A stretch of DNA of 64,000 nucleotides, from contig CAJFQF010000002.1 of assembly GCA_904418995.1 (NCBI GenBank), positions 30,223 through 94,222 of the forward strand. The letters run 5' to 3'. Numbering within the stretch: the stretch's first letter is position 1; each line of letters begins with the position of its first letter. Source of the DNA: Candidatus Heritagella intestinalis (lineage in GTDB: Bacteria; Bacillota; Clostridia; Oscillospirales; Acutalibacteraceae). Shown one piece after another: positions 6,934 to 63,927 of this stretch. A program made the position numbers and the translations under genes. Below the pieces are notes generated by a model. The model had not been told where the DNA came from and did not search any database. It was given only the letters and a program-made list of their open reading frames with translations.

Positions 6934-6964
6934 GGGACCGGAAAGCCACCTCCGGTCCCTTTTG
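6934..6964 (+). terminator. terminator hairpin of repeat unit B
   Basis: GGGACCGGA / TCCGGTCCC stem, then TTTTG. Confidence 0.55.
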
Positions 6965-7225
6965 CTATCCAGAAAAATATTCGTTCATAAGTTGTTGATA
7001 AAAACACCCCAGAATATTCCCAGGTTCATCAGAAAACCATCACATTCCGGCGGTATCCTTATGTCAGCAGGAAAGAGAAGCAGACAGGATCAAGACCTGT
7101 TGATTCCTAAATTGATTTACTGCGCCGGAAAGGACGGAATACCGAGCCGGCGGTATGGCAGACCAAGTACAAGTGCCCGACAGGGCGTTTTCATAGATTC
7201 CTTCTTCATAAAAATCCCTTTCTCA

Positions 7226-7270
7226 TGCAGAAGGCCGGGAGCTGGTAATGCTCCCGGCCTTCTGCATTGT
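7226..7270 (+). terminator. long hairpin closing repeat unit C
   Basis: Perfect 17-bp stem TGCAGAAGGCCGGGAGC / GCTCCCGGCCTTCTGCA. Only a weak T tract (TTGT) follows. Confidence 0.45.
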
Positions 7271-7314
7271 GGATTGGAAATTCTTAGAAAATTAGAAAAT
7301 TTGTTCGAAACCTC

Positions 7315-7342
7315 TTGACAGAAATGGAGAAAGTGGTATACT
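7315..7342 (+). promoter_or_regulatory. sigma70-type promoter for the radical SAM gene
   Basis: TTGACA at 7315-7320, 16-nt spacer, TGgTATACT ending at 7342. Confidence 0.6.
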
Positions 7343-7376
7343 GATAAAAACAAACGTTCGAGAAAGAAGGATGCCT

Positions 7377-8642
7377 ATGACGGTCATGGAGAAGCTGGAG
7401 ATTCTTACGGATGCCGCCAAATACGATGTTGCCTGCACTTCCAGTGGGGTGGACCGGGCGGGAAAACAGGGCAGTATCGGGAGCTCGGCGGCCTGCGGGA
7501 TTTGCCATAGTTTTTCGGCGGATGGCCGGTGTATTTCTTTGCTAAAGGTGCTGTTTTCCAACGCCTGCATTTATAACTGCGAATACTGTATCAACCGCTG
7601 TTCCAACCAGGTGCGCCGGGCTTCTTTTACCCCCAGGGAACTGGCGGACCTGACCATGGGGTTTTATCGCCGGAACTATATCGAAGGCCTGTTCCTCAGC
7701 TCCGCCGTGATACGGAATCCCGACTATACCTGCGAGCAGCTTTTGGAAACCCTGCGCATCCTCCGGGAGGAATACCGGTTCCGGGGATATATCCACGCCA
7801 AGGCGATTCCCGGGGCGGACCCTTTATTGCTGTCTCGAATGGGCCTTCTGGCCGACCGGATGAGCGTGAATATTGAGCTGCCTAGCGAGGGGAGCCTCCG
7901 GCGGCTGGCGCCGGAAAAATCCCGCCACTCCATTTTTGCCCCTATGGGTTTGATTTCCGGGAAGATTCAGGAGCATTCCTCGGAGATGGTGCGTTATCGC
8001 CACGCCCAGCCCTTTTCTCCGGCAGGGCAGAGTACCCAGATGATTATCGGGGCCACCCCGGAGAGCGATTGGCAGATTCTCCGGCTGACACAGGGGCTGT
8101 ATCGGAAGTACCGGCTCAAGCGGGTGTTTTTCTCCGCTTATGTGCCGGTAAACACCACGGCCCTGCTGCCTCCGGCGGGCACCCGGCCGCCCCTGCTCCG
8201 GGAGCACCGGCTCTATCAGGCGGACTGGCTCCTGCGGTACTACGGGTTTACAGCGGAAGAGTTGCTGGACGAGGCCCATCCCAATTTCAATCCCCTCATC
8301 GACCCCAAGGCCAACTGGGCCCTGCACCACATGGAGCAATTCCCTGTGGAGGTAAACCGGGCGGACTATGAGGTGCTGCTCCGGGTACCGGGGATTGGGG
8401 TAAAGAGCGCCCGGGCGATTCTCAGGGCCCGGCGTGTGGCTTCTTTGGATTTCCCGGACCTGAAAAAGCTGGGAGTGGTTCTCAAGCGGGCTCAATATTT
8501 CCTCACCTGCCGGGGAAAAGCCATGGAGGGATTGTACGTGTCCCAAGATGCCGTTTTGCGGAATCTCATCACCCAGCAAGGCCGGAACCTGTTGCCTAAG
8601 GAATCCTTCCAGCAGCTTTCCCTTTTTGAAAGCCTTGCCTAA
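7377..8642 (+). CDS. putative DNA modification/repair radical SAM protein (TIGR03916-like)
   Basis: KYDVACTSSG N-terminal signature, CxxxCxxC cluster (CIYNCEYC), C-terminal helix-hairpin-helix-like LLRVPGIGVKSA. ATG 7377 is preferred on RBS spacing. Confidence 0.75.
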   Translation: MTVMEKLEILTDAAKYDVACTSSGVDRAGKQGSIGSSAACGICHSFSADGRCISLLKVLFSNACIYNCEYCINRCSNQVRRASFTPRELADLTMGFYRRNYIEGLFLSSAVIRNPDYTCEQLLETLRILREEYRFRGYIHAKAIPGADPLLLSRMGLLADRMSVNIELPSEGSLRRLAPEKSRHSIFAPMGLISGKIQEHSSEMVRYRHAQPFSPAGQSTQMIIGATPESDWQILRLTQGLYRKYRLKRVFFSAYVPVNTTALLPPAGTRPPLLREHRLYQADWLLRYYGFTAEELLDEAHPNFNPLIDPKANWALHHMEQFPVEVNRADYEVLLRVPGIGVKSARAILRARRVASLDFPDLKKLGVVLKRAQYFLTCRGKAMEGLYVSQDAVLRNLITQQGRNLLPKESFQQLSLFESLA

Positions 8643-24247: not shown

Positions 24248-25324
24248 TTAAACTTTGGAGATAGTCTCCAAACAATTTTTTATTTCTCCACAAAGCACCT
24301 GTATATCCTCTTGTATATATATCTTGGGTGCAGCTCCACTATCCAAACAGCAAGCACCATCTGCGCCATTATATTCTTCGGGCTTACTAATATATGCCTC
24401 AGAAAATTGCTCTCCATGCGTTAATCTCTGAGTGTATTCGTTCATATCATTCCGTTTTTTGTCTGGACGAGCTCTTATTCGCAAAAGTCTTGATTGTGTA
24501 ACTTCTAAAGACCAAGGAACTTCTTTCGCTTGTAGAGGATACTCAGTAATCTCTTGATTAGCCTCTAAACGCCCTTTGATTTTCTGAAGTTCTGAAGTCA
24601 ACGCCATTACATTTCGTTGCGTCAGTTGGGATTTAGTGATCCTTGGTTTTACGGGGGAATTAGACTGAGCATCCGTAGGTAAATCTGTTGTGTCAGATTC
24701 TTCCGTCACGCCATCAGACGAACAAGAAGAAATATCAGTAAATTCTACAATATCCGTTTTTTTGGGTGGATGCCCATGTTTTGCAAGTAATCGCTCTTTT
24801 AACTCTCGCTGGCTTGATGGGGTGGATTCAGGTATTAAAGTCTTGGGGTTTGAATGGCTGTTATTTGTAGCCATTTGAGCTACTGGATAAAATCGCTTTG
24901 CTTTACGCCGTTCTCTTTCTTGACTATGAATTAAATGGGGATTTCCGCCGAGCGATGAAGATGCAATTTTGAAATCGCCAGATAAAATACATCTTTCAAT
25001 TTCTTCTGCGGTCACATATCCGTCACGAAAATTGGCAACGGCGTCCAACGGAACTCCCCTTGTGACAAACTCGTCGGCCTTTTGTGCAATATCCAGGGGT
25101 GGTTCTGAACTGAGCGATATAGGTTTAGCCTCTGGATCAGAAGGTTTTTCTTGTTGTTTTGGGGGTGTTTTAAAAAAGCGCACAGCAAACACTAGCATAA
25201 CAATGAGCAATACAATCGCTAAAATACCCGCAAAAGAACCTGTTTGAACAAGATAACAGATTATCAAAATAATCGCAACTAAACCCAGAATAGCCTCCAC
25301 TATATACACCCCTATATGAATCAA
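24248..25324 (-). CDS. membrane-anchored hypothetical protein (two N-terminal TM helices, about 300-aa soluble part)
   Basis: Hydrophobic stretches IVEAILGLVAIILIICYLV and FAGILAIVLLIVMLVFAV, then a Pro/Lys/Glu-rich linker. Has its own promoter. Start uncertain (TTG 25324 or GTG 25300). Confidence 0.5.
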   Translation of the reverse strand: MIHIGVYIVEAILGLVAIILIICYLVQTGSFAGILAIVLLIVMLVFAVRFFKTPPKQQEKPSDPEAKPISLSSEPPLDIAQKADEFVTRGVPLDAVANFRDGYVTAEEIERCILSGDFKIASSSLGGNPHLIHSQERERRKAKRFYPVAQMATNNSHSNPKTLIPESTPSSQRELKERLLAKHGHPPKKTDIVEFTDISSCSSDGVTEESDTTDLPTDAQSNSPVKPRITKSQLTQRNVMALTSELQKIKGRLEANQEITEYPLQAKEVPWSLEVTQSRLLRIRARPDKKRNDMNEYTQRLTHGEQFSEAYISKPEEYNGADGACCLDSGAAPKIYIQEDIQVLCGEIKNCLETISKV

Positions 25325-25955: not shown

Positions 25956-27188
25956 TTACTCAATTTCCAGCTGGAAGCGATCCACCTGTTTTCCAAAGAG
26001 CCCTGCATACCCGTCCTGATTGTTTTTAGTCTCGGTGTCGTACTGCCAGGAGTAGTAGTCGCTGTTCACGGGGCTGACGCGGTACTTGGCCTTTTTGTAG
26101 GGGCGGATGCTGTCGGGGGTGTAGTAATAGATCTGGATAGCGTCAATGGGCTTACCGTTGCCAGCATAGCCTTTGGCCGAATCATTAACATTGTATCCGG
26201 TGATCCATCCCAGCCAGCCGCCGCCTTTGACATGTACCCGGTATTTGACGCTACCCTTACTCACCTTGATAGCCACATCAGTAATAGCATATCCCTTCAA
26301 TCCGGCGTAGTCACTCAGGTCTTTAACCTCCGGCAGCCAGCGACCCTCGGTAGTGCGCACCCGATAAGTGGCCGTCACGACGTCGAAAGAGGCACCGGGG
26401 CTGGGTTTGCTGGCGGAGGTGGAGCCGGAAGAGCCGCCCTTGAGCTTGCTGTTTACCAGCGCCTGGATAGCGTCAGGGTCATAACCGGCGGCCTTGAGCT
26501 TGGCCTTGCGATCGTCGCCGTTGCCCCACTTGCCAGCGATTACTTCGTCCGCAATTTCGGCGTTGGACTTTTTCCCGGAGGGGGCGGACTCAGAAGAGCC
26601 GGAAGATGCGGAGCCGCCGGAAAGAGCCTTTTGCACATCTGCCCGGAAGTCATCCATATTCTTGCCGTGCTTGGGGAACCAGTGCAGCACGTCCCCATGG
26701 TTGGAAGCGATACCCCGGTCGTGGCCCTCGCTGTGGCAGATGACGTCCTCTGCCGTCAGGCCGTATTCCTTGCACAGATAGGCGCAAAGTTCCACGGCCT
26801 CCTGGTATACGGCGGAGAAGTAGTCGGCGTCCGTCAGATCATCCTCGCAAATCTCGAAAGAGATGTGGGTATCGTTGCCGGAGCCTTTGGAACCGGAGCC
26901 GCAGTGCCAGCCGCGATGGTCCCAAGGCAGCACCTGATAGGTGGCAATAGAGCCGTCTGCCAGTTTGCCAATAAAGGCGTGGGGGCACACCTCCCGCCCG
27001 TCGGGCTTGTCCTGGTTCCAGTGGTTGCCGTACTGATTTTTTCCCAGTAGGCCATCATCCGGGCCGACATAGCGCTTGAGGTTGGGGTTGTTGGCCCCGG
27101 TGCTATGTACCATGATGCCCTTTGGGGTAATCTTGCGGCCTGCCTTGTAGCAGGCGTTTTCCGTAAAAATGAGCTTATGCAGATTCAT
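25956..27188 (-). CDS. endolysin: N-acetylmuramoyl-L-alanine amidase (Amidase_2/PGRP-type) + CW_7 repeat + C-terminal wall-binding-like domain
   Basis: IMVHSTGANNP...HAFIG...WHCG...EICED...CHSEGH zinc-amidase pattern. KWGNGDDRKAKLKAAGYDPDAIQALVN is Cpl-7-like. ATG 27188 follows the RBS AGGAGGG. Confidence 0.85.
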   Translation of the reverse strand: MNLHKLIFTENACYKAGRKITPKGIMVHSTGANNPNLKRYVGPDDGLLGKNQYGNHWNQDKPDGREVCPHAFIGKLADGSIATYQVLPWDHRGWHCGSGSKGSGNDTHISFEICEDDLTDADYFSAVYQEAVELCAYLCKEYGLTAEDVICHSEGHDRGIASNHGDVLHWFPKHGKNMDDFRADVQKALSGGSASSGSSESAPSGKKSNAEIADEVIAGKWGNGDDRKAKLKAAGYDPDAIQALVNSKLKGGSSGSTSASKPSPGASFDVVTATYRVRTTEGRWLPEVKDLSDYAGLKGYAITDVAIKVSKGSVKYRVHVKGGGWLGWITGYNVNDSAKGYAGNGKPIDAIQIYYYTPDSIRPYKKAKYRVSPVNSDYYSWQYDTETKNNQDGYAGLFGKQVDRFQLEIE

Positions 27189-27190
27189 AG

Positions 27191-27862
27191 TCATCCCTCC
27201 TGTTTTTCCCACGCCTGCGGATAGTCCGTAGGCGAAAAGTTGGTATCGCTGATGCACTTATACAGCGCACCATCCGTCCAGATCATGTACTCCCCGGCCT
27301 TGTAGATGTCCGTGGCGTTGGTGGGAGCTGCCCAGGACATAGCCGTTTCCGGCGTTGTGCCGTGGAGAGGCCGGTTAAACGTCCGCCACGCCGAAGAGCC
27401 AGGGTAGATATCCGGATAGACGGCGGTATCATAGGCGGCAAAACACTCCCAGACCTGCCCAATGGCAGTGTAGATATCGTCCACCTCGTGCTTGCCCTCT
27501 GCCCACTCCGGCCAGAGCCCCGCCACGGCGATCCGCTGGTTGTCGGTTTGGAGGTCAGCTGTCTTGAGCAGTTCTTTGCCCAGAGCTGCCAGTGAGTCCG
27601 TAGCGCTGGGAATGTACTTGGATTGCAGATAGGTGTTTTCCCCAGCATCCAGCATGGCCTGGGCGTCGTCGCAGGGGGTGGTGGTGTCTGGCAGCGTTAT
27701 GCCGTCAATCCACTCATGCTCCGGGGGAATTTCCACCGGTTCCACTTCTCCTCCCGTAAAATCCGCGATTGCCTGGGCGGACTTCTCATCTACAAAATAT
27801 GCGTCTTCCACCTTGTACCGGCAGAGGCGCACTGTCATACCTTCCATTGCGATTTGTGTCAT
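27191..27862 (-). CDS. tail-associated protein with CBM5/12-like carbohydrate-binding repeats
   Basis: YKAGEYMIWTDGALYKCISDTNFSPTDYPQAWEK and an earlier W.EW..G..V.DIY...GQVWEC motif resemble chitin-binding-type repeats. Confidence 0.4.
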   Translation of the reverse strand: MTQIAMEGMTVRLCRYKVEDAYFVDEKSAQAIADFTGGEVEPVEIPPEHEWIDGITLPDTTTPCDDAQAMLDAGENTYLQSKYIPSATDSLAALGKELLKTADLQTDNQRIAVAGLWPEWAEGKHEVDDIYTAIGQVWECFAAYDTAVYPDIYPGSSAWRTFNRPLHGTTPETAMSWAAPTNATDIYKAGEYMIWTDGALYKCISDTNFSPTDYPQAWEKQEG

Positions 27863-27872
27863 GATGTCCTCC

Positions 27873-28994
27873 TTAATAAGAGTTGTTGTCGATCAATACA
27901 CGGCTACCCATGGTAGTGATTTGTTTGCCTGGGGTGATATTGCTGGTGATGACGTTGCGCTCGCCTGCAATCGCTATAGGGTGACCGCTGGGAGTTTGGA
28001 TGGTATCGTCCAGCGCCACATAGTTGCCAGTCACGTTAATGTATTGGCAGTACTGGCTTTGTGTATAAATCCCATATGAACTGTAGTTCAATACAATATT
28101 GTTTATAATGTTGTATCCAACTACAGTCCCGTTTACCATAATCCCGTTGTTAACAGTATTAAAGTAGTTATTGGAAATCGTTACCCGGTTGCTGTTGAGG
28201 CAGTTAATGCCGGTATAAGCGTTGCGTACATAGCACTCATCGATAACAACATCATCCCCGGAAATCGCCAGCCACGGTTGTGTCCCGCCGGAATCCCCCG
28301 TGCGGCTGCACCGGTATACCCTTGCACCGCTATGAGTGTTGGCCGTGCCGCCGATCTGCGCAATCGTGAAATCGGCACCCAGTAATAGGGCATCGGTTCC
28401 AGTAATGGTCATGCTGGGAACGGAAGCATTTGTAAATTTGCAATTTTTGAGTTGGAATCCAGATCCAGACACAACGACCGTCGCCTGTCCGCTGGTTCGG
28501 GAATCCTGAATTACAAAGCCTTGAAGCGTCACGTTTTCACCAGTAACGGAAATCATAGAGGCGCTGCTTTGGTTGGCCAGAATGGACGCCCGATGATTCC
28601 CCGCCAGCGTGATATTGTCGCCGGAAATGGTCAGAGTGCTGGTGAGCACATAAGTGCCATCCAAAAAGTACACCACCCCACCCTCTTCTGGCAGGGCCGC
28701 AATCGCCTGGCTGATGGTGGTTTGGTCCGCGGTGCCGTCACAAAGATAATCACAGTCATCCTCAGTCCAGCCTGCTGTGCTGGTGCCAACGACTACCCGA
28801 TAGGTGCGGGGGCTTCCGCCCCCAGAAGGCCGCCCGGCCAGTTCTTCCAAAGCGTCCTGCACATTGGTGGAACCCAATCCAGAATCACCAGGCGTAAAAG
28901 AGACATTGACAGCTGATGCGTTTACTGTGTTGTCTCTGACTTTGCCAATCGCATCATCGATCTGCTGGCCTGTCCATTGGCTGTTGTAAGGCAT
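27873..28994 (-). CDS. tail spike / receptor-binding protein with right-handed parallel beta-helix (possible depolymerase)
   Basis: Repetitive ITL.GN, VTLQGF, NC.F.N, ISGDDVVIDECYV, ISNNYF, GNYV beta-helix rungs. Confidence 0.6.
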   Translation of the reverse strand: MPYNSQWTGQQIDDAIGKVRDNTVNASAVNVSFTPGDSGLGSTNVQDALEELAGRPSGGGSPRTYRVVVGTSTAGWTEDDCDYLCDGTADQTTISQAIAALPEEGGVVYFLDGTYVLTSTLTISGDNITLAGNHRASILANQSSASMISVTGENVTLQGFVIQDSRTSGQATVVVSGSGFQLKNCKFTNASVPSMTITGTDALLLGADFTIAQIGGTANTHSGARVYRCSRTGDSGGTQPWLAISGDDVVIDECYVRNAYTGINCLNSNRVTISNNYFNTVNNGIMVNGTVVGYNIINNIVLNYSSYGIYTQSQYCQYINVTGNYVALDDTIQTPSGHPIAIAGERNVITSNITPGKQITTMGSRVLIDNNSY

Positions 28995-44037: not shown

Positions 44038-44511
44038 TTACTTCTCCTTTTGTCTTAAAATAAATGACCAGCCGATGCAAATCGCCTCACACTGGTCTTC
44101 TGGAGCCAAAATTCCAAAGTAGTCCTTTACATAGTCTTTGGCCTGTTTCTTTAGCTCTTTTCGTGCAACACCCGCACCTTGATTAAATCCCAATACTTTT
44201 CTCCAACTGGACGGCTTGAAAAACTCAAACGGAATCTTGTGATTTAAACATACCCCTATGATAAACCCCTGCAAACGAGCAAGGAGCATAACAACGGAGA
44301 TGTTAGTCTGTAGGGAGATGTCTTCAAAAACCACATAGTCTGGTTGGCGATTTACGATATTGGCCTCAATCTTTAAGCACATCTGAGAAAATCTTTTGTC
44401 CCGGTCCTGCTCCCCGGAACAATTGATAACGCCGCTTTCCACCAGCTTCCCTTCTTCAAAAACCGCGTACCCGCTTTTGGAAGAAGACTGATCAAAGGCT
44501 AAAATCTTCAT
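44038..44511 (-). CDS. RuvC-like Holliday junction resolvase
   Basis: ILAFDQSSSKSGYAV (first catalytic Asp), PDYVVFEDI (Glu), SSWRKVL, and EDQCEAICIG (last acidic pair) are colinear with E. coli RuvC. Confidence 0.75.
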   Translation of the reverse strand: MKILAFDQSSSKSGYAVFEEGKLVESGVINCSGEQDRDKRFSQMCLKIEANIVNRQPDYVVFEDISLQTNISVVMLLARLQGFIIGVCLNHKIPFEFFKPSSWRKVLGFNQGAGVARKELKKQAKDYVKDYFGILAPEDQCEAICIGWSFILRQKEK

Positions 44512-44512
44512 G

Positions 44513-44553
44513 ATAAAAAGAAATCGATGGGGGAGAGGGGGTTCCCCCATCGA
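44513..44553 (-). terminator. strong rho-independent terminator after the major tail gene
   Basis: Minus strand has a perfect 11-bp stem TCGATGGGGGA / TCCCCCATCGA with an 8-nt loop, followed by TTTCTTTTTAT. Confidence 0.75.
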
Positions 44554-48223: not shown

Positions 48224-49318
48224 TCAGTCGGATTCCTTAGCCAGCATACCAATCTCAAACTCACGGCCCTTAACAACGTCAGCGCCAATCTCAATGTCAT
48301 ACCGGGTCTTCATAACACCGGTCTCCACATCGTTGCCGCTCATGCTGGTAAGGCCACCACGACGGAAGATGTTGACAGGAGAGGCGTTGCCCTGAGCAGT
48401 GAAATAGATACGGTCGGGGTTGTAGTAAGTCTCGAATGCAGACTTATCAGCCAGAGGCTTCATGTAGTTATAGGGATTGGGCAGTTCTACCAGAGCAGCG
48501 CCCTTATAGAAGCCGTTCAGGCCCACACGCGCCATTTCGTCTACCTGAGCGGCAGAGAAGAAGGGCACAGTGCTTTCACCCACAGTCTTATAGCCGTTCC
48601 AATCGCAGATGGTAGACAGCACGGAGAAGTCACCGATAATGTTTACACGACCCATCCGGCGCATCTTGGCGATCATATCATCCACAGCGGTCTGGGTGGG
48701 GGTGTCGGAATACTCAGCGAAGAAGCTCACATAATCGGTGTTGTTCTTCAGAGCGTTGTAAATGGTGTCCATCGCAAAAGCAATAGCCTTGTTATTCATA
48801 TCAATCTGAATCTGACCTACCTCTTCAGCGGTAGTACCAGCAAAGTTACCAGATTCCAGCTCACGATAGTCTACCACCATGCCGGAAGAAATCGTGTGGG
48901 TCACAACAGGATACTGCTTCCAATTCTTAGCGGCAAAAGTTACGTCTCCACCAGAAGCCTGGGCACGAGCATCCAGGCCTTCGTAGGTATAGGTCTTCAC
49001 CATTGCCTGCTCGTTATAGCCAATCTCATGGTAGTTACCCATAAAAGAGAGAACCTTCATAGACTCCAGCAGCTTGGGCTGTACAATGAACTTGACAATC
49101 TCATTGATTTCGGCTCTGGCCTTGGAGTCGCCGTTGTTGCTCCGGTTGCCAAGAGCCTTCAGGGTAGCGACAGCATGATCCTTTTCTTTGCCAAACTTGT
49201 CAGCATCGTTGCCGGAGAGCAGGGCAGAGCAGATCTCAACAAACTTCTTGAATTTGGCCTGATCCTTGATTACAACCTGGTCTCTCTGTGCGTTATTCAA
49301 CTCAAAAGTATATTCCAT
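48224..49318 (-). CDS. major capsid protein
   Basis: 364 aa. Lies downstream of the protease/scaffold and a small decoration-like gene, and a hairpin follows. No motif-level confirmation is possible by eye. Confidence 0.55.
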   Translation of the reverse strand: MEYTFELNNAQRDQVVIKDQAKFKKFVEICSALLSGNDADKFGKEKDHAVATLKALGNRSNNGDSKARAEINEIVKFIVQPKLLESMKVLSFMGNYHEIGYNEQAMVKTYTYEGLDARAQASGGDVTFAAKNWKQYPVVTHTISSGMVVDYRELESGNFAGTTAEEVGQIQIDMNNKAIAFAMDTIYNALKNNTDYVSFFAEYSDTPTQTAVDDMIAKMRRMGRVNIIGDFSVLSTICDWNGYKTVGESTVPFFSAAQVDEMARVGLNGFYKGAALVELPNPYNYMKPLADKSAFETYYNPDRIYFTAQGNASPVNIFRRGGLTSMSGNDVETGVMKTRYDIEIGADVVKGREFEIGMLAKESD

Positions 49319-55420: not shown

Positions 55421-55455
55421 AAAATAGAAAGGCCCTCCCACAATAGGGGAGAGCC
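55421..55455 (-). terminator. rho-independent terminator between the HU-like gene and the packaging genes
   Basis: Minus strand reads GGCUCUCCC / GGGAGGGCC (9 bp, with one G-U that would be a C-A mismatch on the + strand), followed by TTTCTATTTTAATT. Confidence 0.65.
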
Positions 55456-58359: not shown

Positions 58360-58613
58360 TCCTCACTTTCATAATCATCATCAGGCTCCATCTCTTCTCC
58401 GATAGAGAACCCAATCGCATGAGTCTGAGTTTCTACGTCCTCATCTGTCCCAGCAAGCTTTTGCGCTTCCTGGTTTTGTTTGAGGATCTTAATGCTGATG
58501 ATGTTCTTGAAGTAATCAAAAAGGGATTCCATTAGTTCCGTAATCTGCTGTAAGGCGACAAAAATCGCAACCGAAAAAGCCACGATACACAAAGCGTTCC
58601 GTAAATTTTTCAT
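58356..58613 (-). CDS. small membrane-anchored acidic protein (85 aa)
   Basis: ATG 58613 has the RBS GAGAGGT upstream. TM segment ALCIVAFSVAIFVAL. Acidic C-terminus. The stop overlaps the PhoH start. Confidence 0.45.
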   Translation of the reverse strand: MKNLRNALCIVAFSVAIFVALQQITELMESLFDYFKNIISIKILKQNQEAQKLAGTDEDVETQTHAIGFSIGEEMEPDDDYESEE

Positions 58614-58832
58614 CCAATACCTCTCATGCGCCGCAAATGATCCAACACGTCCGGTTCTTCCGAACACCAGTAACGATGCCTCTTTGATTTCTGTTTGGAC
58701 GTGCGGTAAACGTGCGCATAAGGGAATCGACTCCGTACTTGTCTGGCCTCTTCTTTTGTAACCAACACCATAAATAACCATCCTTTTTATTTTATTTGAG
58801 GAGGGGTATGCCCCTCCTTGTTGGCTAACATT

Positions 58833-58885
58833 AAATATCGACATTGAAAACCGACATCAAATATCGACATTCAATCTGGACACAT
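58833..58885. repeat. four tandem 13-bp repeats (CGACAT core)
   Basis: CGACAT at 58839, 58852 and 58865, and GGACAC at 58878, give an exact 13-bp spacing. The AAATATCGACATT unit occurs twice. Confidence 0.75.
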
Positions 58886-58904
58886 TTATAGTATCCATAT
58901 ATAG

Positions 58905-59522
58905 TTAGCTGAAAATTTCAGCCGACAATTTTTGAATGTTGTTGTTGGTTAAAATAAATTCCCCGCTATTGTGGATAGGGACTTCCAGCCGATACTTGGT
59001 TGAGTGAAAAGATTTCTTTGCGCCCCAGGAATAGGTGTTCTGCGGCTTCTGTATGATTGACAGGTACTCATAATCCACCAACTCTGGGATATAAATGGTT
59101 TGCAATGTGCTGCGTGACATATCCAACCATGCACCCAAAGCGGCGGACGATACAGAAAATTCCCTGTCTCTGTCTGCATAGGCCTTGCCATAGCACAGGA
59201 ACGCAAGGGCCACATACTTGGTTTTGCGGCTGTCGAATCTCCTGTTGATTTCTGCTATATCCGCCTGGTTGACCCTGACTACCACATTGTCTGTGAGACG
59301 CCGCTTATCTTCTAACGCTCTCCCAATCAAGTCATTGACATTGTATTTGATGTGAATTCCGTTCTCTTTTGCCCAGGCGAAGATAGATTCCCTGATCTTC
59401 AATTTGGGATAGCCTTGTTCTTTGTACCACTTGGCAATCAACAGCAGGATGTGATACAGGTTGTCTTTCTTCAGATTCTTACCAGCCAGATACCTCTGTA
59501 CTTCTGCAACCTCGTTAATCAA
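58905..59522 (-). CDS. phage early hypothetical protein (205 aa)
   Basis: Overlaps the stop of the RNA-polymerase-like gene. No recognisable family. Confidence 0.45.
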   Translation of the reverse strand: MINEVAEVQRYLAGKNLKKDNLYHILLLIAKWYKEQGYPKLKIRESIFAWAKENGIHIKYNVNDLIGRALEDKRRLTDNVVVRVNQADIAEINRRFDSRKTKYVALAFLCYGKAYADRDREFSVSSAALGAWLDMSRSTLQTIYIPELVDYEYLSIIQKPQNTYSWGAKKSFHSTKYRLEVPIHNSGEFILTNNNIQKLSAEIFS

Positions 59523-61974
59523 TAGACACCGCCTCCATTCTGTATCTCTTACCTAAATATTCAAAATCCCCATCGTCACAGTGAGCAGGCAACAATAATT
59601 GCTGCTGTTTTAAATTGCTCACAATGCCATCTCCAGCCACCACCCACATAAACTTTTTATTTTTGTTGGGGTACTTCTCATAGCACAGTGTTACCGCAAT
59701 ATTTGCCAGTTCCTTCTGGTCGCAAATGCGCTCACACCGGCTCTTGTATTGGTCGTAATAATAGCGCCAGTTGATTTCCAAGCGGCTACCCTCAGCTCGC
59801 AAAGACGCCTGGTCTTTTCCTAACTGCACCATCTCTGCGCAAAAATCCAGAAAAACAGATTCAATCTGCGCAAACGTATCCTCTGAGATAGAAAGGCTTT
59901 CGTCAATCATAATACGGTAATCGAAATCCTTATAAGTTCTCTTCCAGCGTATGCGCTTTTCCCACTTTTCCAATTCCCAGCACAGACGATTCATATTACT
60001 CCGCGCCATAGACAGCTTCATGCGCTTGTAGTAGTCACCACGATAACGCATGAAATAGGGGAGAGGCCGCCCAAATTTTGAAATGTATGGGGGAATCAAA
60101 TACAAAACACCGGTCTTTGCGAAATCGATGGATTTTCCAGTGAGGACAGAAATAATATCAATGTAATGCTCATACTTGAGCTTCTGCTCCTGGGTTTTTG
60201 GCGTTTTGTTGTGGTAAGCGCTGGCGTAATTGCTATATTCACCAATCAGATTCTTCATACTGCGATAGATGATCTTAATGCGGTTTTCCGGCGTGTCTAA
60301 CTCTGGCTCAACTGTGATTTTGTCATCGACATCCAGTACAATGGGCAAATCCCGTTGGATGCCGTTCAATACCGTATCGTTCTGGATAACCAAAACCAAA
60401 TCCCCATCAGAGTCAGCACCCTGCAAACGTTGCATCACAATGTCATAGCAATTTACCATGCAAACATTGGATAAGTGCCCACAATACTTAGAAAGCAGGG
60501 GAGAAGAGACACCGGAAAGGATTGTGTGCTCTGAACGGCAAATGTGAGGATTTCGTTCAATAGCACACTCACCGATAATATCGCCTGTGGCGTTATTAGA
60601 GTAGAACTCCTGGTTGCGTAAAGACCCTTGCGGAGGAAGGCCACCAATTACCTCCATAGCCATCACCAAATCCGGAACCAGGAATTTAAAGCAAGATTTG
60701 AGATACAGCTTCCCGCATTTGAAGTCATCAATGTACTTCTCCAGCAAAGAAATAAAATATTTTCTGACCCCATACTCCTTTAACATCTCTGGATTTTTCA
60801 GAATGGCCGCCGTATAGTTGTTCAGAGGTGTGTGCTTATCGGCGAACATCCCCAGAAAGCACATGGCATACCGCAAGTCTCCATCGATAATCTTCATCGC
60901 CCAATCTGTGCTATAGCCTGCCAAATGAGAGAATTCCTCATAATCCAAATCCAAGTCCTGCAAAATTTGATAATTGCTGCGCGTATAAACCGGCTCCTGC
61001 TCTTTGGAGAAGTTCCACTTGGCGACCCCAAAGCAATGCTCATACCGATAAAATCTATCCCAATAATCCTGCCAGTCCCGAATGTCCCCGTACTGCTTAA
61101 AATACTTGAGGCCCTTGTACATACTCTCAAAAATAATCATGAGAGGTTCTCCTTGCGACGTTACATCATACTCCTGCCCCCATATGTCCTTGATTTTCAT
61201 TACGTTTCGCTCCGCAAAGAAAGAAACATAGTCCATTTCGTGGGTAACGCCTTTGATGAAAGGCAATCGGATTAAGACAGAAGTGGGACGCACATCGCTT
61301 TGCAATAGCTCTTGGATTTTGTCTGTAATGGCTGGATGATGAATTCCACAGCCGTCAAATACATTGATTTCAATATCCCTAACATCTTCCTTTACGTCCT
61401 TTTGCGTACCATGGCGCGGCTTTCCGTCTTTGTCTGTAAAGTCATTTTCCTTGTCGTAGATATATTTGATTTTTTGCGACTTGATCGTCTTATAAAAGTC
61501 CGGAACGACTACAATCTTAGGAACCCAGCCCTCAAGGCAATGGCAGGAACTCAGCATTAGGCCACGGTAAGCATACCATTTGGATAAAACGGTCTTAACA
61601 CCCATAAGGCCCATACAAACCCTGTTGGTGATCTCATCAGCAATAGAATCATCAATGAAGCTCAGAATAGAATTGCGGGTCATAGAGGCAGAGCGCTCAC
61701 ACAACACAAAGTGCTGCTGTCCCACAAAAAAACCGTTTTGCAGCATCTCTGTAAATCCAGGTGTATCCTCCTTGGCTCCCCGGCAATCAACAAACACTAC
61801 ATAAGCGTTGTATTTGCGGGTATCATGGGAGACCAAGCGCACTTGTCTGAACAAAGGGTTGTCCTGTTGTTTGATCTGGTACTGAGTATCGTCATCTCCC
61901 GTAAGACAAAGACCAGACTCCAGAATAACCTTCAGTGGGTATTTGCGAACAATATAAAGCGGTGGTGCGAACAA
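59515..61974 (-). CDS. YonO-like / RdRP-superfamily single-subunit two-barrel RNA polymerase (candidate)
   Basis: 819 aa. LIRLPFIKGV (compare RdRP QIRYGGYKGV), ERNPHICRSEH (compare KNPCLHPGD) and GADSDGD (DxDGD metal site, nt 60400-60420) occur in the family order. Confidence 0.6.
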   Translation of the reverse strand: MFAPPLYIVRKYPLKVILESGLCLTGDDDTQYQIKQQDNPLFRQVRLVSHDTRKYNAYVVFVDCRGAKEDTPGFTEMLQNGFFVGQQHFVLCERSASMTRNSILSFIDDSIADEITNRVCMGLMGVKTVLSKWYAYRGLMLSSCHCLEGWVPKIVVVPDFYKTIKSQKIKYIYDKENDFTDKDGKPRHGTQKDVKEDVRDIEINVFDGCGIHHPAITDKIQELLQSDVRPTSVLIRLPFIKGVTHEMDYVSFFAERNVMKIKDIWGQEYDVTSQGEPLMIIFESMYKGLKYFKQYGDIRDWQDYWDRFYRYEHCFGVAKWNFSKEQEPVYTRSNYQILQDLDLDYEEFSHLAGYSTDWAMKIIDGDLRYAMCFLGMFADKHTPLNNYTAAILKNPEMLKEYGVRKYFISLLEKYIDDFKCGKLYLKSCFKFLVPDLVMAMEVIGGLPPQGSLRNQEFYSNNATGDIIGECAIERNPHICRSEHTILSGVSSPLLSKYCGHLSNVCMVNCYDIVMQRLQGADSDGDLVLVIQNDTVLNGIQRDLPIVLDVDDKITVEPELDTPENRIKIIYRSMKNLIGEYSNYASAYHNKTPKTQEQKLKYEHYIDIISVLTGKSIDFAKTGVLYLIPPYISKFGRPLPYFMRYRGDYYKRMKLSMARSNMNRLCWELEKWEKRIRWKRTYKDFDYRIMIDESLSISEDTFAQIESVFLDFCAEMVQLGKDQASLRAEGSRLEINWRYYYDQYKSRCERICDQKELANIAVTLCYEKYPNKNKKFMWVVAGDGIVSNLKQQQLLLPAHCDDGDFEYLGKRYRMEAVSID

Positions 61975-62429
61975 TCAATCACCTTCTGCAATATTAGTTT
62001 GGGAAGTCGGCCTAAAAATACAAACCATAGAGGGAAAAGGGGCCGAATTCTTGGAGTTTCCAAATTTTAATCTTCCTTTTACGAATCGAATTTCAGCATA
62101 CGGGTAAACATATTGATGAAACCACTTCGTATCAGTTCTGGACGGAACCAGAAACACCACCGTGTTCCCCCCCGACTCTCTTCATAACATTTTTTTGCCC
62201 ACTCTGCACATTCAGAATAGGGAGGATTACACCACACCACTCCACTCCAGGGTTGAAGAAGACCATCATCCTCTGGTGTATAATACTTTTGGCACTTCGC
62301 ATTCTCAGGGAGTGCACAAGCATCCAGAGTGAAGTGAAACTCCTTGTCTAAGTTATCAAAAAAATCCTGTGGCGTTTCCCACAAATCACTTTTGCTGGAA
62401 AACATGACTTTCCTCTGCGCATTGGTCAA
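61975..62429 (-). pseudogene. phage Dam-type N6-adenine DNA methyltransferase interrupted by a frameshift in a G7 tract
   Basis: N-terminal ORF (62079..62429) has WETPQDFF and NPPY. The C-terminal part (from about 62160) reads VVFLVPSRTDTKWFH...GRLKF in another frame. The frames switch at C7/G7 (62167-62173). Confidence 0.7.
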
Positions 62430-62444
62430 TATCTCAATCCTCCA

Positions 62445-63254
62445 TCAATTAACCAGACAACGATCGCATTCTTCCGGCTCAATCTCACAGAACCATCTAT
62501 TTTTACATTCGCCACATTTGAAAAGTACGGTTTTATTGCTAACACGCCGCAAAATAGCCCGCTCCTGTAAGGTTTTGTCCAAAAACTCAACTCCCTTAGT
62601 TGTCCAAAGGGTTTCGTTTACAACCTCTGTCTCTCCATTGCTGCGAATTATCGGCGTCCTTCGAGTAACGGTATATCCTTTATTTTGATAATCAGAATAT
62701 AAAACCCACTGTTTTCCAACTTTATATTGGATACCCAATCCGTGAAGAAGCTGATTGAAGCGCTTTGCTGACATACCATAGTTCTTAGCAACACTGGTAG
62801 TCGTAATCCCATTGGAAGCCATTAGACATCTGGACGCGTAGTCCGCAGCAGGTTCCAGTTTTTCAATCAATTTCTTTTGCTGCGCATTCTCTCCCTCCAA
62901 AAGCCGCAGCTTCTGATCCGCAATCTGCAAGGCTCTTGCCATGACTTTCTCCGGACTGTTCCAATCCTTCTCTAGCTGAATAAAATATTGACGGGCTTGT
63001 TTCCCACGCTCATTGCGCTGGAGCATACAGATTTCCTTGGCCATCTCGATGGTGAGCTGGGCATCCTGTGCCGGACGGCCTCCGGTACTTTCGCTCAAAA
63101 ATGAGCGAAAGTCCTGTCCCTCCGCAAAACCATATTCGCACATTCTAGGAAACCAATCTTTATAGGCGGTTTTGACTCCCAAAAATTCATGCAGTTCTCT
63201 GGCCGACACAGTGGGACGGCCATCATCGTAAGAAACTCGAATCAATTCATTCAT
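62445..63254 (-). CDS. phage antirepressor (AntA/AntB N-terminal + KilA-C-type domain) with a C-terminal Cys cluster
   Basis: VSARELHEFLGVKTAYKDWFPRM and LTIEMAKEICMLQRNERGKQARQYFI are typical Ant motifs. ATG 63254 is preferred. Confidence 0.8.
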   Translation of the reverse strand: MNELIRVSYDDGRPTVSARELHEFLGVKTAYKDWFPRMCEYGFAEGQDFRSFLSESTGGRPAQDAQLTIEMAKEICMLQRNERGKQARQYFIQLEKDWNSPEKVMARALQIADQKLRLLEGENAQQKKLIEKLEPAADYASRCLMASNGITTTSVAKNYGMSAKRFNQLLHGLGIQYKVGKQWVLYSDYQNKGYTVTRRTPIIRSNGETEVVNETLWTTKGVEFLDKTLQERAILRRVSNKTVLFKCGECKNRWFCEIEPEECDRCLVN

Positions 63255-63258
63255 AGCA

Positions 63259-63927
63259 TCACACCCCCACAATCTCACTCAACGTCTTATGCTTTCCGCA
63301 GCTCTTCCGCTCTGGACAGAAGGCAAACTCGTATCTTTCGCACTGCGGGGCCATCATATCTGCAACCTCTGGGCAATAACAACGCACTGCCTTGCGCATG
63401 GCGTAGAACAGCTCTCTAATTTCGCTCTGGGCACGATTGCAAAGACGCAGGCGACTGGCCTCAACCAACGCCCTTGCATTCATGGTCACAACAATCTCTG
63501 TTGTACACGCATTGGGAAGCACTGCTCGTGCATCTTCCGGTCTTACACCATCCTGAACCAGATATTTGTAGGACGTAGCCGCATCCTGCATGGCGTCCTC
63601 AAAAATATCATGAGCAGAGTCGCCAGGCAGGGGAGGGTAGACATACTCAAACCCGTCTTCCAAACAGTAGCGCTGGCTGCGTTGGCTGTAGCTGGCATGG
63701 CGATGCCGCACAAGCTGATGGCTGCAAGCACGACTGATTCCAGAGATGTGAAAGGTGAAAGAGATATGTTCCCATACGCTCATATGTCCAGACTTGGCGC
63801 ATCCCTTTGCGATGGAATAGGTAGGGGTAGGGGAGCTGTCATAGCAAACACAAGCCGCCTCCTCTACAATTTGGGTGGGAGAACCTCCTTGAACGGGTGT
63901 GGACATTCCGATTACTTTAACTTCCAT
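63259..63927 (-). CDS. thyX: FAD-dependent thymidylate synthase ThyX
   Basis: ThyX signature RHRHASYSQRSQRY (RHRxxSxxxxSxRY) plus the HMSVWEH motif. Confidence 0.9.
   Translation of the reverse strand: MEVKVIGMSTPVQGGSPTQIVEEAACVCYDSSPTPTYSIAKGCAKSGHMSVWEHISFTFHISGISRACSHQLVRHRHASYSQRSQRYCLEDGFEYVYPPLPGDSAHDIFEDAMQDAATSYKYLVQDGVRPEDARAVLPNACTTEIVVTMNARALVEASRLRLCNRAQSEIRELFYAMRKAVRCYCPEVADMMAPQCERYEFAFCPERKSCGKHKTLSEIVGV

Follow-up and report, generated by a model that had tools for sequence, protein, structure and literature searches.

A predicted YonO-family RNA polymerase and a candidate transcription start element at the head of the late genes of an SPbeta-like prophage in a gut Oscillospirales bacterium

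YonO, encoded by the Bacillus phage SPbeta, is a processive DNA-dependent RNA polymerase that prefers DNA templates and for which a triad of Asp residues is essential (PMC5467207). Deletion of yonO silences 37 late genes, which form one operon whose start site lies between yonO and yonK; the enzyme pauses little and is devoid of the flap domain that is used in hairpin-dependent termination (PMC5467207). YonO is the only two-barrel polymerase of its lineage with a demonstrated function, and functional work on the family is confined to it. How polymerases of this type choose their start sites was left open by Forrest et al. (2017), the promoter and any accessory factor being then undefined (PMC5467207), and our literature searches returned no paper after 2017 on a YonO promoter or accessory factor. 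Here, we analysed a stretch of 64,000 nucleotides (nt) of Candidatus Heritagella intestinalis (assembly GCA_904418995.1, contig CAJFQF010000002.1, positions 30,223 to 94,222), hereafter the window, in which a gene of 819 amino acids (aa) with a TTG start, at 59515-61974 on the minus strand, very probably encodes a YonO-family single-chain two-barrel RNA polymerase. The best explanation of the locus as a whole, which we hold with good confidence, is that this is the polymerase of an SPbeta-like phage and that it transcribes the late block, at the head of which its gene stands. Next to the gene we found a coupled partner gene, a conserved box and an array of short repeats, whose role is much less certain.

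An earlier note on this DNA, made from the letters alone, had read in this open reading frame (ORF) three motifs recalling eukaryotic-type polymerases and YonO. Translation bears out the 819-aa frame and the order of the motifs; the residue positions were right to within one residue and the nucleotide range given for the third motif was exact. The TTG start is correct, since the homologues begin at the same MFAPPLY residues and cover 100% of the protein, and a Shine-Dalgarno-like GAAGGTG stands immediately 5' of it. We aligned 66 homologues, 52-96% identical to the query, and found invariant residues in all three motifs and in two others, all of which also align with YonO. LIRLPFIKGV (aa 234-243, 61246-61275 on the minus strand, as for the other motifs), the R...KG motif of the beta-like barrel, aligns with MVRLPWVKGL of YonO and is invariant at R236, P238, K241 and G242. 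ERNPHICRSEH (aa 473-483, 60526-60558), the R-x-P motif of the beta'-like barrel, aligns with LRSPHLFREH and is invariant at R474, N475, P476, H477, S481 and E482. GADSDGD (aa 519-525, 60400-60420), which holds the catalytic triad D521/D523/D525, aligns with QFDNDGD and is invariant at G519 and G524 as well as at the three Asp. Upstream of these, FDGCG (aa 206-210, 61345-61359; TDGCG in YonO) is invariant at D207, G208 and G210, and 3' of the catalytic loop an extra invariant motif, KSIDFAKTG (aa 614-622, 60109-60135; TIDFAKT in YonO), keeps K614, D617, K620, T621 and G622. The other residues described as invariant in two-barrel enzymes are the Arg and Pro of R-x-P, two Lys of the beta-like barrel and a fourth Asp (PMC2919709). 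By sequence alignment R474, P476, K241 (with R236) and D207 are both invariant and matched in YonO, candidates for the Arg, the Pro, one of the two Lys and the fourth Asp. D207 is a candidate for the fourth acidic residue of the first barrel, the counterpart of D837 of Rpb2 and D709 of QDE-1, a correspondence inferred from PMC2919709.

The family assignment does not depend on the motifs alone. Against Pfam, the protein matches the RdRP (RNA-dependent RNA polymerase) model PF05183 with 47.5 bits (E=1.4e-12; gathering threshold 23.8 bits) over aa 74-650 and profile positions 58-570 of 582, and this is its sole Pfam match at E<=1. Direct comparison with SPbeta yonO gives 23% identity over 79% of the query by tblastn (E=5e-24), and BLASTP against YonO aligns 685 columns at 23% identity (E=3e-30) and brings all three motifs into register. 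D521, D523 and D525 fall on the DNDGD of YonO, where the triad is essential: in the 3D>3N mutant of YonO, in which the triad Asp are changed to Asn and whose mutagenic primer spans the DNDGD motif, complexes form and RNA extension is lost (PMC5467207). In PHROGs the protein falls in phrog_8308, of 'unknown function' (4e-80), and its C-terminal domain (aa 650-819) is matched by PHROG 35857 only. No NCBIfam model matches the polymerase, its 205-aa partner or YonO. Sequence searches of the Protein Data Bank with the single protein and with the 66-sequence profile matched no polymerase, and fold comparison alone succeeded there.

For that comparison we used an AlphaFold model built on the 66-homologue alignment, with a mean predicted local distance difference test (pLDDT) of 91.8 and a predicted template modelling score (pTM) of 0.88. 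Among solved structures, Foldseek returned QDE-1 (E=3.6e-23, template modelling (TM) score 0.54), the RDR2 enzymes of maize and Arabidopsis (TM 0.55-0.59) and the 'Phage P32 gp64' RNA polymerase (8f72, 2.5e-7), followed by the weaker crAss-like phi14:2 gp66 (6vr4, 0.025), Rpb1 of Pol II and E. coli beta'; no unrelated neighbour was met. The model places the DSDGD segment in a loop leading from helix 513-516 to strand 526-530, and the predicted fold, judged by its match to QDE-1 and RDR2 along the whole chain, is that of two double-psi beta-barrels with DxDGD on a barrel loop, as the earlier note had expected. A match to a primase or to a structural protein, which that note had named as telling against its proposal, was looked for and none was found, nor was a T7-like or Pol A-type RNA polymerase among the Pfam matches at E<=1 or the Foldseek matches. 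The Pfam, BLASTP and QDE-1 Foldseek values, together with the invariant residues, put the match far beyond chance. YonO itself (locus L001, 2770-5289) has no Pfam RdRP match at E<=0.01, whereas the window protein scores 47.5 bits and gp3 of the Thomasclavelia phage TR-TP1 scores 69 bits. Hence, the branch found in gut Clostridia stands between YonO and the eukaryotic enzymes in sequence and is nearer than YonO to the eukaryotic RdRP profile.

What does such a polymerase do in this phage? Every long ORF in the window from about 24.2 kb onwards lies on the minus strand. In the direction of transcription, the polymerase is preceded by thyX, an anti-repressor gene and a Dam methylase gene, and followed by the 205-aa ORF, two small ORFs, genes for PhoH-like, exonuclease, HU-like and YonG-like proteins, the large terminase, the portal and a YonD-like protein, then by head and tail genes, a 1876-aa tape measure, Dit, fibres, endolysin and holin. 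The late genes proper, from an 85-aa ORF through the holin gene, run co-oriented over 33 kb (25380-58613, minus strand; ORF map, PHROGs and Pfam), and the polymerase gene stands directly ahead, at the head of this block. The order of the SPbeta late module, i.e. YonO, HU-like protein, YonJ-type exonuclease, YonG, YonF terminase, YonE portal and YonD in one orientation, recurs in the window. The first ORF 3' of the gap described below (53 aa, 58610-58771, minus strand) occupies the position held by a YonK-family gene in the more distant locus L085, where YonK and YonJ_N family genes lie directly 3' of the box and repeats; the orthologous genes of L002 carry Pfam YonG_N and YonD_N. Since the gene order is shared with the SPbeta late module, a role of the polymerase in late transcription seems fairly probable. 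The polymerase gene heads the late arm in temperate and virulent double-stranded DNA (dsDNA) phages alike.

The scheme that we favour would run as follows. Host polymerase would transcribe the phage polymerase gene as the last of the thyX, anti-repressor and Dam run, which it continues; the phage enzyme would then transcribe the genes for packaging, head, tail and lysis in a single long unit, reading through internal terminator-like hairpins. Such read-through is plausible because YonO pauses little and has no flap domain. We infer two further steps more weakly: the box, or its close vicinity within the gap behind the partner gene, would be where transcription begins, and the winged-helix-like partner would bind the adjacent array of 13-bp repeats as a clade-specific specificity or recruitment factor. 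The strong terminators and the co-oriented packaging and structural genes that the earlier note reported downstream are there, as terminator-like hairpins in the case of the former. One with a T tract lies at 55421-55455 (minus strand), after the HU-like gene and before the YonG-like and terminase genes, and others inside the late block lie at 49368-49347, 48210-48187, 42978-42955 and 37305-37241. These hairpins also weigh against a single long unit, for they could instead mark several separate transcription units. Two of them, the GC-rich pair at 49368-49347 and 48210-48187 (minus strand), flank a 364-aa gene (48224-49318) that is probably the major capsid gene, and a layout bracketed by hairpins is often seen around highly expressed capsid genes.

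The gap in question measures 134 nt (58904-58772). Between the polymerase and terminase genes there is no other sizeable non-coding stretch, and Rfam contains no known RNA family that covers the gap. The gap opens with a conserved 23-nt box, ATATGGATACTATAAATGTGTCC (58878-58900, minus strand), a candidate late promoter. The box is found at the same place in relatives so diverged that the partner proteins share only 40-58% identity, and it is absent from related loci that lack the partner, even when their polymerase is closer to that of the window. We scored it with a hand-anchored weight matrix of 23 columns, made from 14 sites that include the site of the window and therefore circular for the sites used in training. 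With this matrix the box is single-copy in the window (score 29.9, inflated because the site belongs to the training set, against 12.2 for the next best). A first gapless refinement of the motif had drifted on spacing differences of 1-3 bases and was replaced by this matrix.

Behind the box, Tandem Repeats Finder delimits 3.4 copies of a 13-nt period at 58828-58871 (minus strand), which read AATGTCGATATTT, GATGTCGGTTTTC, AATGTCGATATTT and AATGT. Relatives have the same period with other units: L085 has eight copies of AAAGTCACATTTT, and further relatives have GATTCATTTTACT, TTTCATTTGAnnT or TATACCATT, so that the repeat unit differs between clades (ATGTCGATATTT versus AAAGTCACATTTT). Of 31 unique regions, 21 have 13 as their best period, whereas 7.6% of 3,000 random segments drawn from these loci do, and at least 26 of 42 period-13 matches are reached in 8 of the 31 regions, against 0.8% of the controls. 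The array is followed by a hairpin, GGAGGGG-CATA-CCCCTCC (58800-58817, minus strand), then by an A-rich stretch and a ribosome-binding site; GC-rich hairpins stand at the same place in L084, L085 and L088. A DNA packaging (pac) site was considered as an explanation of box and repeats and set aside by analogy with SPbeta, whose genome is opened at a point upstream of yonP-yonO, not downstream.

The gene ahead of the gap (58905-59522, minus strand) encodes 205 aa. Its TTG start codon falls within the final codons of the polymerase gene, and GGAGG precedes it by 9 nt, an arrangement that predicts translational coupling to the polymerase gene. A homologue lies directly 3' of the polymerase in 38 related loci, in some of which the polymerase is only 41-43% identical to that of the window, and a profile built from related loci recovers gp4 of TR-TP1, a 'hypothetical protein', as a member of the partner family (E=3e-74). 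The protein belongs to no Pfam, PHROG or NCBIfam family and matches no sigma factor, ArpU/RinA or other described regulator family. It evolves fast, and sequence searches found 11 clusters. In its model (pLDDT 84.5) the N-terminal half is helical and the C-terminal half shows the succession H-E-H-H-E-E of helices and strands. The Foldseek matches are weak (best E=0.033), and nearly all are to winged-helix DNA-binding proteins: ArsR/MarR regulators, an iteron-bound RepA_N, the centromere binder AspA and TFE-alpha. The C-terminal half of the protein is probably of winged-helix type.

The coupled partner, the box and the clade-variable repeats appear to be undescribed features. We tentatively suggest that together they make up a promoter and specificity module for YonO-type polymerases. 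The more precise proposal, that the coupled winged-helix protein reads the 13-bp repeats beside the box and that this is the first promoter and specificity-factor system for such enzymes, with a zinc-ribbon protein or a 270-290-aa protein filling the same slot in other clades, is rather doubtful. Several observations weigh against giving box and partner this role. The matrix finds no site in the P_YonO region of SPbeta, as delimited by the published primers, and for this reason the box cannot be attached to the sole mapped YonO start site. Nor does SPbeta have a homologue of the partner within the 7.9-kb stretch from yonT to yonJ. A tblastn search of the whole phage collection with the single partner sequence found no homologue, but it missed TR-TP1 gp4 too, which makes this a failure of sensitivity. 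The structural matches of the partner are individually non-significant, the best E value being the 0.033 quoted above, and two related clades fill its slot with other ORFs. In L113-L130, the ORF 3' of the polymerase has 82-86 aa and is of zinc-ribbon type (weak Pfam matches to MqsA_antitoxin and Zn_ribbon_TFIIB); in L090-L098 it has 271-291 aa and no family match.

The remaining objections come from the box itself and from TR-TP1, and they lead to the rival explanation that survives best. The box contains a TATAAT-like hexamer, a possible -10 element for host sigma-A. In TR-TP1 (L170/L171) a copy matching the box at 21 of 24 positions stands at the head of the opposite, minus-strand arm (88938, minus strand), which carries MazF-like, integrase and replication genes. 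This second copy weakens the view that the box marks late promoters only. Upstream of the polymerase operon of the same phage, at about 850-890 on the plus strand, there is a good sigma-A-type promoter with a related -10 (TTTACA-N17-TGaTATACT). One might thus read the box as an ordinary -10 element at which host polymerase starts late transcription, with the 205-aa protein acting as a classical repressor or roadblock, or as an activator, and the phage polymerase starting elsewhere or having another task. The end of the box (TATAAA, TAATAA or TATAAT, preceded by TATG-RATACT) does resemble a -10 region, and the repeats lie downstream of the hexamer, the usual place of operators or leader elements. 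Yet there is no conserved -35: in the window its position falls within the end of the partner gene and reads GCTAAC. The TG of the box is out of register for an extended -10, and a sigma-70 scan finds no gene-strand site in the gap. The promoter at the equivalent place in SPbeta depends on YonO (PMC5467207), and the window offers no other sizeable non-coding stretch before the terminase. On balance we find the host-promoter explanation unlikely.

A second alternative concerns the template and not the start. The protein might be, as its Pfam and NCBI names have it, an RNA-dependent RNA polymerase that copies or amplifies RNA, for antisense regulation or counter-defence, instead of transcribing phage DNA. 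It passes the Pfam RdRP model, unlike YonO, and its best neighbours among solved structures, QDE-1 and RDR2, are RNA-templated; QDE-1 has been solved with RNA as well as DNA templates (7y7p-7y7t). Against this, when sequences are compared directly, no characterised enzyme is nearer than YonO, whose preference is for DNA templates and whose role is late transcription; virulent and temperate dsDNA phages alike carry the gene at the head of the late arm, and the late module is syntenic with that of SPbeta. We therefore regard an RNA-copying role as very improbable. That the gene is a decaying or domesticated remnant without a polymerase role in a defective prophage, as the frameshift in the adjoining Dam gene and the partial view of the prophage in the window might suggest, deserves hardly any weight given a full-length ORF with all catalytic residues intact and invariant, a 90% cluster of 75 members, contigs of about 96.6 kb with a 96%-identical polymerase, and intact structural and lysis genes.

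Late transcription by the phage's own YonO-type enzyme is thus the reading that we retain, and it is helped by what could be learned of the phage as a whole. Positions 1 to about 24,000 carry host genes, e.g. for formate-tetrahydrofolate ligase, CCA-adding enzyme and a histidine kinase. The ligase, whose best match is 84% aa identity to metagenome-assembled genomes of Ruminococcaceae/Acutalibacteraceae, placed the host no more finely than order or family. The window covers 40 kb of the phage, namely its late arm together with the last part of another block. Two metagenome contigs of 96,553 and 96,637 bp (ERZ27280775 k141_436881; ERZ28616088 scaffold_137) encode a polymerase 96% identical to that of the window at different offsets, as would be expected of a complete permuted genome of about 96.6 kb, and their genes include members of the Pfam families YonG_N and YonD_N. 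The prophage belongs to a temperate siphovirus of about 96 kb, distantly SPbeta-like, whose host is a gut bacterium of the Oscillospirales. The siphovirus-type prophage of the earlier note is hence a siphovirus indeed, only not a small or ordinary one. The portal is 40% identical to those of SPbeta-like Bacillus phages (E about 1e-112) and 22.6% identical to YonE (4e-15). Because identities of 22-40% are so low, membership of the genus Spbetavirus is unlikely by sequence comparison.

The early neighbours named in the earlier note, thyX (63927-63259), the anti-repressor gene (63278-62445) and Dam (62429-61975), are present upstream, co-oriented and almost gapless over 61975-63927 on the minus strand; the Dam gene, however, is frameshifted. 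A frameshift in seven consecutive G (62173-62167) splits this adenine methylase gene into two overlapping ORFs (116 and 61 aa); with one G added, a protein of 151 aa is restored, whose reading frame closes one base short of the polymerase start. The 116-aa product is also called in an independent assembly (L167). Either a sequencing error in the homopolymer or a phase-variable switch could account for the frameshift. A skipping-rope RNA (Rfam RF02924; 24103-24179, minus strand; 66 bits, gathering threshold 36.7) lies at the extreme end of the prophage, and the last phage ORF before it (24248-25324, 358 aa) has no family match. Amid the tail genes, between structural genes, lies a gene for a RuvC-like Holliday junction resolvase (44038-44550, minus strand). 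Finally, G+C rises to 0.57 at 26000-28000, over an endolysin with Amidase_2 and CW_7 domains, against 0.43-0.50 elsewhere in the prophage, which suggests a recently exchanged lysis cassette.

The earlier note had taken the presence of such a gene in this kind of phage and host to be undescribed, and on this point it does not stand. YonO-like proteins were catalogued in 2010 in five Firmicute phages and about 50 bacterial genomes, two 'Bacteroides' species among them (Ruprich-Robert and Thuriaux, PMC2919709), and relatives were on record also in PMC5467207, in NCBI protein names and in phage annotations. The gene family and its presence in gut Clostridia and their phages are already known, and the presence of the gene is no surprise. 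An exhaustive HMMER search of 1.84 billion cluster representatives found 1,402 clusters at E<=1e-3 and 204 at E<=1e-30; at 50% identity, the family thus numbers about 1,400 clusters. The two species catalogued under 'Bacteroides' have probably since been reclassified as Clostridia. A word-indexed search gave 447 clusters at 90% identity, with PF05183 on all of the best 120, and the 90% cluster of the window polymerase has 75 members. Two clusters carry the NCBI name 'RNA dependent RNA polymerase' (from Anaerolentibacter hominis and Gehongia tenuis). IMG/VR yielded 167 stretches with relatives, many of them on contigs of 85-150 kb, and tblastn against 50,697 phage records matched 42, SPbeta yonO included, some of which are annotated as 'DNA-directed RNA polymerase' or 'RNA-dependent RNA polymerase'. 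The exact polymerase sequence was found in a chicken-gut run and in a 237-kb NCBI contig, whereas a scan of a genome collection gave 46 pattern matches of which none was confirmed. In many relatives (L131, L137, L140, L144, L146, L151-L165) the tblastn match to the polymerase spans 3.0-3.7 kb, not 2.5 kb. In L144 an ORF in the insert (6938-7801) encodes a GIY-YIG homing endonuclease with a helix-turn-helix domain (Pfam 4.7e-12), which together with the longer spans indicates a mobile intron inside the polymerase gene. Likewise, yonO_1 and yonO_2 are annotated in some SPbeta-like Bacillus phages. A large and well-sampled branch of the family thus lives in SPbeta-like phages of gut Clostridia, and the partner, the box and the variable repeat array provide concrete proteins and templates with which to study how minimal polymerases start transcription.

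How does the locus compare with the described systems? The most remote are the phage enzymes gp64 (8f72) and crAss-like phi14:2 gp66 (6vr4), which share the two-barrel catalytic core by structure (2.5e-7 and 0.025), but the resemblance is far weaker than with the other relatives (TM 0.28-0.42) and no sequence similarity was detected. The crAss-like gp66 is packaged in the virion and injected, and nothing hints at packaging of the window polymerase. QDE-1 and RDR2 have the same whole-chain fold (E about 1e-23 to 1e-21, TM 0.49-0.59), and their Pfam family, PF05183, covers aa 74-650 of the window protein. They differ in having 12-15% identity to it, and the window protein is shorter and ends in another C-terminal domain (aa 650-819). 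It is moreover encoded by a dsDNA phage, so that a DNA template is expected. Cultured siphoviruses with genomes of 90-100 kb, namely the Thomasclavelia phages TR-TP1 and TR-TP2 and several Enterocloster phages (PMBT24, CB457P1 and others), have the gene under the annotation 'RNA-dependent RNA polymerase'. The name in these records is automatic only, and the PMBT24 paper does not mention the polymerase gene. The Enterocloster proteins are far more distant from that of the window, with 24-25% identity over 54-69% of the query.

In SPbeta, YonO is also a single chain of about 820-840 aa with the R...KG, R-x-P-H and DxDGD motifs in the same order, and it too heads a co-oriented late block with HU-like, exonuclease, YonG-, YonF-, YonE- and YonD-like genes. 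The differences lie in the 23% identity of the polymerases, of which only that of the window passes the Pfam RdRP model, in the host (Bacillus for SPbeta, a gut Oscillospirales for the window) and in the immediate neighbours: yonO has yonP upstream and yonN (HU) downstream, where the window has the coupled 205-aa gene instead. The start site of SPbeta is found about 0.3-0.5 kb past yonN and is separated from yonK by about 1.2-1.4 kb that include a non-coding RNA, whereas the candidate of the window lies in the 134-nt gap. Between the mapped YonO start region and yonK, Rfam identifies a DUF3800-VIII RNA (L001, 7171-7236, plus strand), which may be the 'unannotated non-coding RNA' of Forrest et al. 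In TR-TP1, gp3 is 41% identical to the window polymerase over the full length. Behind it come gp4 of the partner family and a 134-nt gap that contains a variant of the box; genes for HU/IHF-like and exonuclease proteins, the terminase and the portal follow. This member of the branch is in culture.

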